From positions 384,001 to 448,000 of the forward strand of contig CAVSZB010000003.1 in assembly GCA_963732385.1 (NCBI GenBank): 64,000 bases of DNA, written 5' to 3'. The position numbers were made by a program. Origin of the DNA: an uncultured bacterium (GTDB lineage Bacteria; Krumholzibacteriota; Krumholzibacteriia; LZORAL124-64-63). Position 1 is the stretch's first letter, and each line of letters starts with the position of its first letter. Of this stretch, positions 37,101 to 43,100 are shown piece by piece.

Positions 37101-40100
37101 CGTAAAGAGGGTGGCGTCAATGTCGCGTTGCCGGCACAGGTCGAGGATCTTCGTCTGGTCGCCGACGAGGATCATCTCGGCGATGCCCTCCGCCGCCGCG
37201 CGCGCCGCGGCCTGGATGGAGTTGGGGTCGTGCCCCGCCGCCACCGCCACGCGCCGGGGCCGGACCGGCGTGGCGGAGGCGCGGCTGACGGCCTGCAGCG
37301 ACTCCACGAGCTGGTCGAGTGTGCGGATCGGGTTCATCGCGCCTCCTCCGGCGCGTAGACACGCGCCGCCTCCTTGCCCTGCAGGACGCGCAGGGCCCCC
37401 TTGACGAGGGCGGTCATTTCGTTCTCGCCAGGATAGACCGTCACGCCGCAGCCCAGCGCGGAGACCGAGCGCTCGATCATGTCCACCAGCAGTTGCGAAC
37501 GCGCCAGCCCGCCGGTGAGCAGGACGCGGTCGACCGGCTCGCCGTCGAAGGCCGGCACCAGCGCCGCGATGTTCTTGCCGATCTGGTAAGCCATCGCCTC
37601 CACGACCGCGGTCGCTTCAGGATCGCCGGACAGCACGCGCTGTTCCACCTCGCGGAAATCGGCGGTGCCGAGCAGGTCGATCAGGCCGCCGCGTCCCTTG
37701 TTGAGCTGCTTGAGCTCCGCGTGGGTGTAGCGCCCGGAGAAACAGAGATCGATGAGCTGGCCGGGTGGCAGCGAACCGGAGCGCTGCGGCGTGAAAGGGC
37801 CTTCGCCGTTGAGGCCATTGTTGACGTCGATGTAGCGTCCGTGCTTGTGCGCGCCGACCGTGATGCCGCCGCCCATGTGGCAGACGATCAGGTTCAGGCT
37901 CTCGTAGAAGTTCTCGTGTTCCTCGGCATAGCGCCGCGCGGTGGAGATCTGGTTGAGCGCGTGGCTGACGACCACGCGCCGGAGCGCCTTCAGGCCGGTG
38001 ATTTTTACCCGGTCCGGCACCTCGTCCACGACGACCGGATCGACAATGAACGCCGGCTTGCCGGTGCCCGTCACCAGTTCGTGCGCGATCAGAGCGCCGA
38101 GGTTCGAGGCGTGGTCGCCGCCGACGCCGCCCAGCAGGTCCTCCCGCATGCGGCTGTTCACGGCGTAGGTGCCGTGCGGGATCGGCCGCAGGACGCCGCC
38201 GCGTCCCGACACCGCGTCGAGATCCGCCACGCCGAGCTGATGCGCGGCGAGGGCGGTGAGGATGACCTCCTTGCGGAAGCCGTACTGCGCCATGATGCTC
38301 TGTCCCTCGAACGGCGCCAGTTCGGCGGCGGTGTGCGTGAGTTCGGCCGTGAAGACCTCCTGGTCCCCCTCGTAGACGCCGATCCTGGTGGAGGTCGAGC
38401 CGGGGTTCACCGCCAGGATGCGGAAGCGGCGGCAGAACGTGTCGAGCGGCGTGCGGCTCCAGTGCCCGAAGCGGTGCAGGCGCAGCACGCTCGCCTTGAC
38501 CGCCAGGCGGGCGTCCTCGGTGGCGCAGTCGAGCGGCAGGTCGACGCCGCGAAAGCGCAGTCCGAACATCACCGGGAACTTCTTCGATTCGGGGAAACGC
38601 GAAGCGTACAGATGGTAGAGCAGGTTCCCCATGTCGAGGTTCGGGCAGATGAGGGCGTTCGTGCCGCCGGCCAGCTCGGCATCTTCGGCATGGTAGTAGG
38701 TGGCGGAGCGGCGCGAGAGCGCCACGCTCACCTTCACGGGCCCGTGGATGCGGATCGACGCGTAGCGCGCGCCGACGGCCACGCGCTTGGCCAGGATTCC
38801 GGGCACGAGCGCCATGGCGTCGCGCACGAGGTCGGCTGCCGGCCCCTCGTCCGCGCCGCGGTGCGAGTACGATACGATGGCGCCCTTGATGACCGGCAAC
38901 ACGTCCTCGGGGATAAGGTCGCGCGCCACGGCGCAGGTGCCGACCGCGCAGTGAGCGAGAATCTCGGGCGTCATGGTGCCGTTCACGCCCACGTCCCCGA
39001 ACACGACGATGTTGTGGGGGAAGACGTCGCCCGGAAAATCGTCCGGCAACACGAATACGCCGGCCTCGCACTGGATGCGTTGCATGTGCAGCAGGCGCAG
39101 CATCGGTCGGAAATAGTCGCGTGGCTCGTGGTCGGCGCCGCCGACGACCATGTCGGCGTGGCCGAGCCGCACGCACATGATGCCGAACTTCGCCGGTTCG
39201 TACACCAGCGCCCGGGCTTCGTCTAGGGTGCGCGCCCGCGCCATCTCGGGCGGCAAATCGAGACAGGCGCGCGCGAACTGTTCGCGCAGATCCGCCCGCT
39301 CCTCGATGTCGATGAACGTGCTCTCGGCAAGCGTGAAACGCACCCTGGTTGAGTCGAGGTGGCACAGATCGCGCGCGATCACCTCGCGCACGGCCGCCTC
39401 GGGCGCGAGGAACACCGGACGCACGAAGCGGGTGAGGTGACACGCAGCCTCGATGATCCGCGGATCGAGCGGCTCGATAAAGACCACCGTGGGGCGGTTC
39501 TTCATGTGGGCCAGGATCTGGGTGTCGAGACTGTTCTCGAGGTCGTACATCGGTCCCTCCCGCGGCGAGGGGGCGGCGGTCCGGCGACGGCGGCGGCGGT
39601 CTTCTAACCACAATAGTCACCCACGGGACGCGGTTTATCAACTTCAGCGACTCGCCGGCGGCGGTGCTCCGCCATTATTAATGTGGAAAAGCCGTCCGGG
39701 GCCGTGGCACGATCGGGGAACGTCTGCGGGTTTGTCGCCGGTGATCGGGGAGGCTGCGATCAGTAATTCAGGGAAGGCTGCGTTTGCCGCGCATGGAGCG
39801 CCGGGGGCGCCGGGGAAGTCCGCCCTGGTGGCCGCGGGCGAACGGCGCCTGGCCGGCGTGCTGGGCGCCGTGCCCGAGCGCTGGCTGCTGGTGAGCACGC
39901 ATTACCAGCGGCTGCTGCTGATCCGCAGCGGCGCCGTGGCGCGGCAGTACCGCGTGTCCACCGGCGCGGCCGGCGTGGACGGCCGCGAGGGTTCGGGCGG
40001 TACGCCGCCCGGCGTGCACACCATCGCCGCCCGGATCGGCGACGGCGAACCGGTCGGCGCGGTTTTCCGCGACCGCGTGGCCACGGGCGAAGTGTGGTCG

Positions 40101-43100
40101 TCGGCAGCGGCGGGCGGAGTGTCCGGCCCGGCCGCCGAACTCATTCTGACCCGCATCCTCACTATCGAGGGCTGGGAGCCGGGGGTGAACCGCGGTCCCG
40201 GCTGCGACAGTCTCGCCCGCTACATCTACATCCATGGCACCGATGACGAGGCGCGGCTCGGGCAGGCGGTGTCGCACGGCTGCGTCCGCCTGGCCGGCGA
40301 CGACATCGCCTCGCTCCACGACGAAGTGCAGGTGGGGGATCCGGTCGTCATCCTGCCGGATCGTCCGCTGCGCTACCACTTCGCCGGCATCGCCGGCAGC
40401 GGCATGAGTGCCCTGGCTCAGTACCACGTACTCGGCGGGGGGCTCTGCAGCGGAAGCGACCGGGCGTTCGACGCCGGTGAGAGGGGCGAGATCCGCGAGC
40501 GGCTCGAGGCGCTCGGCGTGGTGATCGCGCCGCAGGACGGCAGCGCGCTCGCTCCTGTCGCCGCGGGTGGCGCCGACGCCGCGTCTCCCGACTGCGACGG
40601 CCTCATCGTCTCGAGCGCCGTCGAGGAGAGCGTGCCCGACGTAGCCGCGGCGCGGCGGCTGGGCGTGCCGGTGCTGCACCGCTCCGAACTGCTGGCCCGA
40701 TGCGTCGACGAGCGGCAGACCGTCGCCGTGGCCGGCACGAGCGGCAAGTCCACGGTCGTGGCGATGATCTTCGAGATCCTGCGCGGCTGCCGGCGGGACC
40801 CCTCGGTCATCACAGGTGGTGAACTGCGGCTGCTGCAGGGCGAAGGGCTGCTTGGCAACGCCTGGGCCGGTCGCGGCAAGATGCTGGTCATCGAGGCGGA
40901 CGAGAGCGACGGCAGCGTGACCCGCTATGCGCCGTGGGCCGGCGTCCTGCTGAACATGCAGCGCGACCACAAGGAACTGGCCGAGCTGGCGGCGATCTTC
41001 GCGGCCTTCCGGCGCAACGTCCGCGGACCGTTCCTGGTCGGCGAGGACGAGAATCTCGCGCCGTTCGCGGCGAACGCCACCCGCTTCGGTTTATGCGAGA
41101 CCTGCGCCGTCCGCGCCCAGGATGTCCTGCTCACTCCCGACGGCGCGCGTTTCTCGGTCGCGGGGGTGCGTTTCACGCTGCCCGTTCCGGGCAAGCACAA
41201 CGTGAGCAACGCCGTCGCCGCTCTGGCCGTTTGCCAGGCGCTCGGACTGCGCTTCTCGCAGATGGCCGCCCCGCTGGCGCGGTTCCAGGGGGTGGCGCGG
41301 CGCTTCCAGATCGTGGGGCGCGCGCGCGGGGTGGAGGTCGTGGACGATTTCGCTCACAACCCCGACAAGATCGCGGCCGCTCTCTCCACCGCCCGTGCCC
41401 GCGGCAGGCGGATCCTCGCCGTCTTCCAGCCGCACGGCTTCGGCCCGACCCGCTTCCTGCGCGACGATCTCATCGCGGCGTTCACGCGCGGCCTGCGGCC
41501 GACCGATCGGCTGTATCTTCCGGAGATCTTCTTCGCCGGCGGCACCGTTACGCGCGACATCTCGTCGCACGATATCGCCGCGGCGGTGGCGGCGCGCGGC
41601 GTGCCGGCGCTCTTCACCGAGCGGCGCGACGACATCGTGCCGTCGATCGCCGGCGAGGCGCGCGAGGGGGATGTGATCCTGGTCATGGGCGCGCGCGATC
41701 CGTCGCTCACCGACTTCTGCCGACGGATTCTGGCGCGTCTCGAGGCGCGCGGCAGCGACGAACGGCGCTAACGCACCAGCGCACCGGCCGCCAGCTCGCG
41801 TCCCGCTCCGGTCAGCGTCAGCGCGCCGGCCTGCTCGCTCACCAGTCCGCGTTGTCCGGCGGCGCGCACCACGCGCGCCGCGAACTCCGGCGCCCAGCGC
41901 AGATGATCGTGGAGGTGGTCCACGCGGCTCTCGACCGCCTCTTCGGGCGTGCCGGCGTGCTGGGCGAGATGGATGGCGAGCATGGCGAGGGCGAATTCGA
42001 GGCGCTGCCGCGCCCGGCGGCGGGCCTGCACGAGGAGGCCGCGTTCCGGGGCGAGCGCCAGCGCCAAAGCGAAGACGACGCCGGTCATCGTGGCCATCGA
42101 GCCGGCGATCGAGGCGTCGAGCAGGTGCGCCATCCAGTAGCCGCCCAGGGCGGCCGCCACGCCCAGCAGCACGCTCAGTCCGATCATGGCCGGCAGCCGG
42201 TCGGTCAGCAGGTAGGCGGCAGCAGGCGGTCCGATCATCAGCGCCACGACCAGGATGAGGCCGACCGCGTCGAACGCCCCGACCGCCGTGACCGACACCG
42301 CGCCCATCATGCCGTAGTGGATCAGCGCCGGCGCGAAGCCGAGCGCCGCCGTCAGACCCGGGTCGAACGACGCCAGCTTGAGCTCCTTGTAGAACACCAG
42401 CATCAGCAGGCCGTTCAGGGCGAGGATGCCGCCCATCATCCAGAGCGCGCGCGGGCCGAGGTCGACGCCGGCCGCGCGCAGGCGCTCGAACGGCGCGAAC
42501 GCCAGCTCGCCCAGCAGGACAGCGTCGATGTCGAGGTGCACGTTGCCGGCGTAGCGCGAAATGAGGATGACGCCGAGGCTGAACAGCGCCGGGAAGACCA
42601 GCCCGATGGCGGCGTCCTCGCGGACGCGTCCGGTGCGCTGCAGCAGCTCCACGAGGGCGACCGTCAGCACGCCGGTGGCTGCGGCGCCCAGGACGAGCCA
42701 CGGCGAGGCAAGATCGCCGGTGGCGAAGAAGGCGACCACGATGCCGACCAGGATCGAGTGGCTGATCGCGTCGCTGAGCATGGCCATCCGGCGCAGCACG
42801 AGGAAGACCCCCGGCAGCGCGCAGGCCGCGGCGGTCACGGCGGCGATGGCCTGGATCTCGAACTGTGGCTGGGTCACGTCGCGACCTCCCCGTCCGGCGT
42901 TTCGCCCCGACCGGCGTGATCGCCGGCGACCAGCGCCCGCGCCGTCGCGACCCCCGCCAGGGTGAGCGCCCAGGCGTCGTCGCCGGCCGGGCGCACCAGG
43001 CCGCGGCCCTGCAGCGCCGCGAGGGCGCGCCGCGCGCCGGGTCCGGTGCCCATCGCGTGCAAAACGGCGCGCGCGTGCGGAGCCTCCTCGGGACGTTCGT

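Follow-up and report, generated by a model that had tools for sequence, protein, structure and literature searches.

An ElsL-Type Domain Fused to a Mur Ligase Reveals an Unrecognized Ligase Family Likely Involved in Murein Peptide Recycling

A single gene in the window (the whole stretch of 64,000 nucleotides analyzed here, from an uncultured bacterium of the Krumholzibacteriota) encodes an ElsL-type YkuD domain followed by an entire Mur ligase, and what this fusion reveals is an unrecognized ligase family. Judging from its sequence, the ligase does not belong to MurC or to Mpl and forms a third clade within their branch. We consider it likely (probability about 0.75) that it is an analog of Mpl which joins recycled tripeptide to UDP-MurNAc and is paired with a trimming enzyme that excludes tetrapeptide.

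The Fused Gene and Its Genomic Context

The fused gene (39732..41771, + strand) has a stop-free translation of 679 amino acids. Where it starts is uncertain: an ATG in the same frame occurs at 39681, and the database call is a protein of 696 amino acids beginning 17 codons upstream. Residues 4–24 are modeled with pLDDT below 50. Pfam analysis of the protein revealed YkuD (residues 50–207), Mur_ligase (215–326), Mur_ligase_M (333–501), and Mur_ligase_C (523–655), with neither a membrane anchor nor a PG-binding domain. All four domains were present in 120 of 120 homologs among the matches listed (the window's own protein being one of these), an independent DNA contig covers positions 39607–41751 with all gaps in frame, and a contig from an RNA library runs across the YkuD/ligase junction. 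Thus, the fusion, which had been proposed in a preliminary description of this DNA and is confirmed here by translation, Pfam, homologs, and independent contigs, is not an assembly artifact. The read contigs come from runs with small word shares and are informative on neither habitat nor expression level. A total of homologs at E ≤ 1e-3 had also been given. Such totals (here 5427 matches at E ≤ 0.001) do not tell how many fusions exist, as Mur ligases of every kind, 373–1189 amino acids long, can score.

The gene lies among pta/buk-like and metal ABC genes, outside the dcw cluster, and is present in addition to the canonical murC, which we located on contig C7 of the same genome, within the dcw cluster. 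A search for a sigma-70 promoter gave no match, and an atlas search with a conserved gene upstream returned unnamed clusters only. No description of a YkuD–Mur ligase fusion was found in a literature search.

Exchange with Mpl and LdcA

The ligase was detected in 58 of the 60 genomes of the host's family, and the remaining two (G055 and G105) carry true Mpl. These were the only 2 of 151 genomes with Mpl over its cut-off, and the Mpl signature motifs are present in both. Similarly, an ElsL-like domain was found in 58 of the 60 genomes; the other two (G093 and G120) carry S66 LdcA and were the only 2 of 151 with S66. None of the ligase, Mpl, the ElsL-like domain, or S66 occurred in 90 genomes of eight other families. 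Since G055 and G105 belong to the same genus and their YkuD domains are mutually nearest (66%), the Mpl swap in this family was probably one event. The host genome (95.8% complete) was searched for both S66 LdcA and Mpl over cut-off and has neither, in agreement with the preliminary description. That description had left the substrate of the ligase open; the exact exchange of the ligase for Mpl, and of its partner domain for LdcA, is strong genomic evidence on it.

In an alphaproteobacterial sample, 33 of 251 genomes contain the ligase, all 33 have S66 (31 by HMM and 2 by tblastn), and the two genes are adjacent in 27; S66 was found in 34 of the 218 ligase-free genomes and Mpl in none of the 251. 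Within a sample of the proteobacterial phylum, the ligase was present in 6 of 151 genomes and absent from all 107 that have Mpl, an exclusion that is confounded by class. Stand-alone ligase loci have S66 within 3.2 kb in 49 of 68 cases and none nearby in 19. These S66 partners are of two types, which are 27% identical, in two layouts. At most stand-alone loci the partner is S66 instead of YkuD, and at one locus an M15B zinc peptidase occupies the S66 position. The recycling L,D-carboxypeptidases LdcA (S66) and LdcV (a zinc peptidase) have folds unrelated to YkuD. Two genomes of unstated completeness (G545 and G546) contain the ligase, with S66 and ElsL not found. The ligase family may span Krumholzibacteriota, Latescibacterota, Acidobacteriota, and Eisenbacteria, together with about 1 in 8 Alphaproteobacteria.

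A Ligase Clade Distinct from MurC and Mpl

Pfam and alignment delimit ligase domain 1 (40374..40709, +), which is predicted to bind the UDP-sugar and contains the glycine loop, Asp243, and the clade-specific Arg244, and domain 2 (40728..41234, +), the ATP/Mg domain, with Lys339, Glu388, Glu391, and His413, in which Ser337 replaces a His of MurC and Mpl. Domain 3 (41298..41696, +; Pfam) is predicted to bind an amino acid or peptide. The hallmarks of the Mur ligase superfamily are present (three domains, the P-loop Lys, the Mg ligands, and the ATP-binding Arg/Asp/Asn), and the ATP/Mg positions are all retained by the clade.

The amino acid site is different. Arg377 and Arg380 of MurC have been assigned roles in binding the alanine carboxylate (PMC3060825). 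In the fused protein, Arg377, Arg380, and Tyr346 are replaced by Gly569, Pro572, and Phe540, the first two within residues 566–572 (41427..41447, +; alignment). Among 246 clade rows, the first Arg is Gly in 99–100% and the second Pro in 98–100%; Arg380 is Arg in 142 of 142 MurC rows. The clade also has invariants of its own (Arg244, Ser337, Asn543, Lys546, Gly603-Gly604, Arg632, and Arg655-Asp656); at the last pair (residues 652–656; 41685..41699, +; alignment), every one of the 142 MurC rows has Gly in place of the Arg. Phylogenetic analysis separated the clade from both MurC and Mpl (support 100/99). A grouping of Mpl and the clade to the exclusion of MurC is split in the best tree, yet kinship with Mpl is still allowed (AU test, P = 0.21). 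Contrary to the earlier suggestion, the ligase is not Mpl itself.

Mpl (Escherichia coli; Psychrobacter arcticus 3HN7; TIGR01081) shares with the ligase the three-domain Mur fold, a MurC-like ATP/Mg site with Glu391, the Phe540-Ala541-His542 stretch, loss of the MurC arginine clamp, the same slot in the genome profile, and, as we suppose for the clade, dependence on an L,D-carboxypeptidase. In contrast, the GI(C/G)GTFM loop, the EPRSNT and SNG motifs, and the (S/T)AFFDKRSK loop with its preceding Tyr are absent from the ligase, the last also from all 111 further fusions examined. The TIGR01081 score is 95 bits (cut-off 388.7), with 129–155 bits for three stand-alone members. Since most of the tripeptide-site residues of Mpl are missing, the ligase might work in the same recycling pathway on some other peptide; Psychrobacter Mpl itself uses di-, tetra-, and pentapeptides as well, though slowly (PMC3060825), and gene profiles settle the pathway, not the exact substrate. 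We regard this as unlikely, because strict pairing with a tripeptide-making enzyme and exchange with Mpl fit tripeptide best, and no gamma-D-Glu-mDAP amidase was linked to the ligase among the neighbors scanned.

MurC (Haemophilus influenzae 1P3D; TIGR01082) is the closest match by HMM score, sequence, and fold: the ligase reaches 289 bits (cut-off 335.1), reproducing, like its mpl and ElsL scores, the values given before, and has a Z score of 45.5 to MurC (rmsd 1.9 Å over 433 residues) versus 31.6 to Mpl. The clade maximum over 42 genomes is 334.3 bits. Glycine loop, ESD motif, and the equivalents of His376 and His348 are also shared with MurC. Together with NamZ and nucleotidyltransferase genes, which are neighbors in the host genome, these features would suit a second MurC attaching a single residue (L-Ala, Gly, or Ser) to UDP-MurNAc, such as that derived from MurNAc recycled via NamZ/AmgK/MurU, the carboxypeptidase being merely co-regulated; moreover, no canonical MurC over cut-off was found in 5 of 42 tested genomes. 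However, both carboxylate-binding arginines are gone, canonical MurC accompanies the ligase in the other 37 genomes, and such an enzyme would explain neither exact replacement by Mpl nor repeated recruitment of unrelated L,D-carboxypeptidases, which makes a second MurC quite improbable.

Frankia MurC2 (PMC7231273) is likewise a second murC copy within one genome. Unlike the present gene, it adjoins murG and is able to replace MurC1, and the paper mentions neither a carboxypeptidase nor Mpl; we set it aside as a clade member by gene context alone.

The ElsL-Type YkuD Domain

The YkuD domain (residues 50–207; 39879..40352, +) is a predicted cytoplasmic L,D-carboxypeptidase, based on Pfam, NCBIfam, kinship, a hydrophobicity scan, and a fold search. 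Its catalytic residues, previously unchecked, are intact: His168 and Cys184 (motif at 40233..40283, +) are conserved at 100% across 119 fused sequences and 38 from the family. The assignment to the ElsL type is supported by 36–49% identity to 30 proteobacterial ElsL-like proteins (a set that did not include Acinetobacter baumannii ElsL) and by shared subfamily invariants. ElsL-like proteins score 139–180 bits against the domain profile versus 41.5 for the genome's own L,D-transpeptidase. The protein is without a signal peptide from either candidate start, as had been noted for its N-terminus; N-terminal hydrophobicity is 0.83 for the window protein and at least 2.0 in 1 of 120 homologs (a simple scan, not SignalP).

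ElsL (LdtK) of A. baumannii (PMC8649774, PMC8630537; NF040925) resembles the domain in its leaderless YkuD fold, catalytic Cys, subfamily invariants, and mutual exclusion with LdcA; it differs in standing alone, with Mpl as its partner. The length range for stand-alone ElsL (105–200 amino acids, PMC8649774) includes the two-gene relatives and excludes the fused form, and because that ortholog search dropped proteins longer than 200 amino acids, fusions could not surface in it.

The fused protein scores 120 bits with NF040925, below the curated cut-off of 270. This model appears narrow, since 0 of 151 proteobacterial genomes reach its cut-off; their range of 118–210 bits includes the 120–124 bits of this domain. 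The YkuD fold by itself does not tell carboxypeptidases from transpeptidases. That the domain is a transpeptidase or amino acid exchanger on cytoplasmic precursors, or that the pair serves a pathway outside peptidoglycan recycling, could be argued from this sub-threshold score and from the nearest solved folds (L,D-transpeptidases at Z 14.9–13.2, ahead of Csd6 at 13.1 and Pgp2 at 12.4), but is highly improbable given that no ElsL structure was among the matches, that proteobacterial ElsL-like proteins score alike, and that the domain exchanges exactly with S66 LdcA.

Fused and Two-Gene Forms

Most relatives in the host's family hold YkuD and ligase as two coupled genes, whose ligase TTG start and ykuD stop sit at the junction of the fused protein (residues 203–214; 40338..40373, +). 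Every one of 27 adjacent junctions (duplicates dropped; L008 missed by the pattern) has an in-frame TTG 14 nt before the end of the ykuD stop and an SD-like word upstream of it; none of 4 fused cases and none of 6 distant ones shows the TTG pattern. SD-like words are also present in 7 of 10 controls. As codon background, GTT makes up 4.9% of Val and CTT 2.6% of Leu codons. These TTG counts rule out sequencing error or frameshift as the origin of the split forms; a programmed +1 frameshift is conceivable but improbable. Complex prediction for the split YkuD and ligase of L005 gave a score of 0.00, which bears neither way on binding.

No fusion of S66 to the clade was found among 8 long S66 matches; the candidate P0124 combines S66 with true Mpl, its linker and end garbled, and is probably an assembly artifact. 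A plasmid search yielded only MurC-level matches (28–33%).

A Model for Peptide Recycling

From anatomy, residues, tree, and gene profiles, we infer both activities and the peptide substrate. The protein would be cytoplasmic, with two activities in cell-wall peptide recycling: the Cys184/His168 pair of the ElsL-type domain would cut the terminal D-Ala off recycled tetrapeptide, and the third-clade ligase would do the job of Mpl without the Mpl signature, Lys546, Arg632, and Arg655 possibly holding the Glu and mDAP carboxylates. Like Mpl, the ligase would require an L,D-carboxypeptidase, as dead-end tetrapeptide precursors would otherwise form, and this partner would be guaranteed here by fusion and in relatives by gene overlap. 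Trimming might act on free peptide, muropeptide, or ligated product.

Coupling of tetrapeptide trimming to peptide ligation in one chain, as first envisaged, is the most likely reading; that the two steps follow at once is unsupported, most relatives having two genes. Nor is the fusion needed as a Rosetta-stone proof, because ElsL–Mpl coupling had already been established genetically (PMC8649774). A bolder and more doubtful possibility is that a third, independently evolved family of murein-peptide ligases, routinely mislabeled murC, has in several phyla taken on L,D-carboxypeptidase partners of three unrelated folds, the fused form being one proof-reading machine that trims and ligates so that tetrapeptide precursor is never released.

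The supply of free cytoplasmic peptide in the host is uncertain, because the amidases found all begin with a hydrophobic stretch, AnmK was not found, and the AmpG-like protein is below its cut-off. The Amidase_2 protein of the window (57763..58368, –), previously described as AmpD-like, has a hydrophobic, signal-like N-terminus and is probably exported rather than a cytoplasmic AmpD; although not adjacent to the fused gene, it might be an extracytoplasmic source of free stem peptide. Host MurE has the DNPR motif, as does E. coli MurE.

Implications

Bacteria without mpl and ldcA have been concluded to degrade stem peptides to amino acids (PMC13046382, PMC9790009, PMC11980594). If our reading is true, part of this absence would be an artifact of E. 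coli query sequences, with a hidden pair of ligase and trimmer in the 33 alphaproteobacterial genomes and in nearly the whole host family. Caulobacter crescentus and Agrobacterium, both outside the clade-profile search, are left unexplained by the clade. The enzyme is directly assayable, the motif set would be diagnostic for mending annotations (some members miss the murC cut-off by less than 1 bit), and the clade would offer a natural comparison in which a MurC-like scaffold exchanges a single amino acid for a peptide as its substrate. Many bacteria supposedly unable to reuse wall peptides whole can probably do so.

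The Fused Gene and Its Surroundings

The preliminary description proposed that a YkuD domain is joined to a complete Mur ligase, and this fusion is real: the gene (39732–41771, + strand) is a single 679-aa frame in which Pfam places the YkuD domain at residues 50–207 and three Mur ligase domains at residues 215–655. The same four domains were found in 120 of 120 homologues listed (the best 120 of 5427 matches, a figure which is not a count of fusions). An independent DNA contig covers the gene with all gaps in frame, an RNA-library contig spans the YkuD–ligase junction, and the AlphaFold model has a pLDDT of 91.7 and a pTM of 0.89. 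Searching in reverse, from a stand-alone YkuD protein, retrieved longer relatives, with Mur domains in 118 of the 120 listed; for 103 of 111 new longer YkuD relatives, the score on the clade profile of the ligase described below was 500 bits or more.

Labels among the fused homologues include Krumholzibacteriia, Eiseniibacteriota, Holophaga, Udaeobacter, Limnocylindria, and Methyloceanibacter. The last is carried by fused proteins P0327, P0330, and others, and other Alphaproteobacteria have a stand-alone ligase with S66 (LdcA-type L,D-carboxypeptidase); it is possible that the fused gene in Methyloceanibacter-labelled records was acquired by transfer.

Because one neighbour is divergent (a phosphate acyltransferase/kinase gene) and the other convergent (a metal ABC transporter), the fused gene probably forms its own transcription unit. 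A terminator-like hairpin with an AT-rich tail lies just upstream (39657–39673, +). The region 36393–39613 (−) encodes a protein in which a phosphate acetyl/butyryl transferase is joined to an acetate/butyrate kinase domain, and then a second transferase, directly upstream of an rnf cluster. Long frames without a Pfam match occupy 45662–49897, 54425–57277, and 58799–63162.

Thirty loci of the family (L090–L119) comprised 3 fused genes, 22 adjacent gene pairs, and 5 ligases without ykuD within 1.5 kb. All 27 distinct junctions between adjacent genes have a ligase-frame TTG, built from rare GTT or CTT codons, 14 nt ahead of where the ykuD stop ends; none of the 4 fused and none of the 6 distant cases has one. 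This argues that the split form is a real, translationally coupled gene pair. Function does not appear to require fusion. In L122 and L124, ykuD and the ligase gene are 6–8 kb apart, with ATP-grasp, lysine-aminomutase-like, and deacetylase genes between them.

The YkuD Domain

The earlier assignment of the N-terminal domain to the ElsL type (YkuD-family cytoplasmic L,D-carboxypeptidase) is borne out at the sequence level. His168 and Cys184 are invariant, and the domain shares 36–49% identity and the subfamily invariants with 30 proteobacterial ElsL-like proteins, which scored 139–180 bits on its profile versus 41.5 for the membrane-anchored LDT of the host. N-terminal hydrophobicity reached at least 2.0 in only 1 of 120 fused homologues. 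On NF040925 (cut-off 270 bits) the domain scored 120–124 bits. Of 151 proteobacterial genomes, 86 gave scores of 118–210, a range that includes these values, and none reached the cut-off. A fold search matched transpeptidases and carboxypeptidases alike. According to PMC8649774, ElsL cleaves tetrapeptide and not pentapeptide and requires its Cys, mpl (murein peptide ligase) mutations suppress ElsL loss, and the published orthologue search left out proteins longer than 200 aa.

A Third Ligase Clade

The description of the C-terminal half as a complete Mur ligase stands, whereas its identity as MurC or Mpl does not: by profile, tree, and residues, its sequence places it in a third clade beside both. 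On a profile built from 52 relatives, full-length clade members scored at least 508 bits, and the highest scores were 337 among 150 MurC representatives and 209 among 31 Mpl proteins; one broken member (L027) scored 412. IQ-TREE analysis of a 55-row subsample supported the clade (100/99) and put it outside MurC and Mpl (93/92, unstarred, with the bootstrap not settled), and FastTree with 147 rows concurred. The AU test, with Mpl rows that were all proteobacterial, did not reject a grouping of the clade with Mpl (p = 0.21). It is likely from these sequence comparisons that the clade arose independently of Mpl.

Distribution of Ligase and Carboxypeptidase Genes

In the host's phylum, the ligase was detected in 58 of 60 genomes of the same family (several as fragments; 57 plus G048, whose copy runs off the end of a contig) and in none of the 90 from other families. 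The ElsL-like domain gave the same totals, 58 of the 60 family genomes and none of the 90 others, plus 4 weak core-motif matches. S66 occurs in 2 of 151 genomes, exactly the two without the ElsL-like domain (G093 and G120), and Mpl, with its motifs, in 2 of 151, exactly the two without the ligase (G055 and G105). Thus, each of the 60 family genomes carries a single ligase and a single carboxypeptidase, and both are missing from the other families. The Mpl swap was probably a single event, these related genomes not being independent. The ligase of G040 (L104), a genome from the genus of the two that carry Mpl instead, is interrupted by an in-frame TAA close to the C-terminus.

The ligase is present in 33 of 251 alphaproteobacterial genomes, a set taken from the class of a Sphingomicrobium record (31 whole and 2 partial; G187, with a MurC-level score, was left out). 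All 33 have S66 (2 by tblastn), adjacent to the ligase in 27, compared with 34 of 218 genomes lacking the ligase; Mpl was found in 0 of 251. Across a phylum sample of 151 genomes, 6 had the ligase and none of these was one of the 107 with Mpl, an exclusion confounded by class.

S66 was located within 3.2 kb of the ligase in 49 of the 68 loci with a stand-alone ligase, which came from the best 80 of 468 stretches. It is of two types, 27% identical, one downstream and one divergent. In L046, a leaderless VanY/M15B zinc peptidase (9358–9933, +) occupies the slot where related loci have S66, and is a possible third carboxypeptidase partner on the basis of this one locus. LdcV is also a zinc peptidase (PMC8649774), and the possible link to it comes from this single locus.

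In 22 alphaproteobacterial loci (including L046:7145–7981), the gene immediately upstream of the ligase is a conserved one of ~280 aa; it had no Pfam match, and an Atlas search returned unnamed clusters only. An M17 aminopeptidase gene adjoins the ligase in L033, L035, L062, L071, L077, and L080, all without nearby S66. Protein P0124 combines S66 and a true Mpl in a single 687-aa record with a garbled linker, which suggests neighbouring ldcA and mpl genes merged by sequence errors.

Proposed Function

We consider it probable (about 75%) that the fused protein trims tetrapeptide and joins the tripeptide to UDP-MurNAc. The Cys/His domain would trim the tetrapeptide, and the tripeptide would then be ligated through an acyl-phosphate, bypassing MurC-D-E. 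Since tetrapeptide precursors are dead ends (10.1101/771642 and PMC8649774), a carboxypeptidase partner would be obligatory.

Against such pairing, 19 of the 68 stand-alone loci lack nearby S66 (of 5 checked genome-wide, 3 have it elsewhere), and in the other two of those checked, G545 and G546, which have the ligase, neither S66 nor ElsL was found genome-wide. That the ligase uses another peptide, or that trimming is post-ligation editing, is unlikely.

Residues were compared across 246 clade, 142 MurC, and 31 Mpl rows. Every ATP and Mg position named in PMC3060825 is kept in the 246 clade rows; the same paper gives the MurC amino-acid site as His376, Arg377, Arg380, Tyr346, and His348. Mapped via E. 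coli MurC, both histidines are retained in the clade, Arg377 is replaced by Gly (99–100% of rows) and Arg380, Arg in all MurC rows, by Pro (98–100%), and Tyr346 is Phe, as in Mpl. In the MurC structure, Arg377 and Arg380 hold the carboxylate of alanine, and the methyl pocket is lined by the Ala equivalent to Ala654. The Mpl signature loop was not found in the 246 rows, and new clade invariants are Arg244, Ser337, Asn543, Lys546, Gly603-Gly604, Arg/Lys632, and Arg655-Asp656. This pattern is as would be expected for a substrate that starts with L-Ala, the carboxyl of which is engaged in a peptide bond, and that has additional carboxylates beyond it. Of 42 genomes with the ligase, 37 also have a canonical MurC; that the ligase is a second MurC, with both arginines replaced, seems improbable. 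Some other chemistry is very improbable.

The dcw cluster of the host contains murE (DNPR motif), murF, mraY, murD, murG, and murC. NamZ, whose N-terminus is not hydrophobic, is next to a nucleotidyltransferase gene (L231, G000:C7, near 1.19 Mb). The genome also encodes an AmpG-like permease scoring under the cut-off and two family-5 peptide-binding proteins; a search of it for AnmK found none. Hydrophobic stretches precede the domain in all four amidase frames examined, and the only Amidase_2 protein in the genome (57763–58368, −) has a signal-like N-terminus. A possible source of free peptide is release outside the cytoplasm followed by uptake through an Opp-type system, and this supply is the weakest link of the recycling reading.

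No description of the fusion or of the ligase clade was found in the literature searched, most subscription journals lying outside its reach. The system is a known one in altered form, and its main new content is an unrecognised ligase family.
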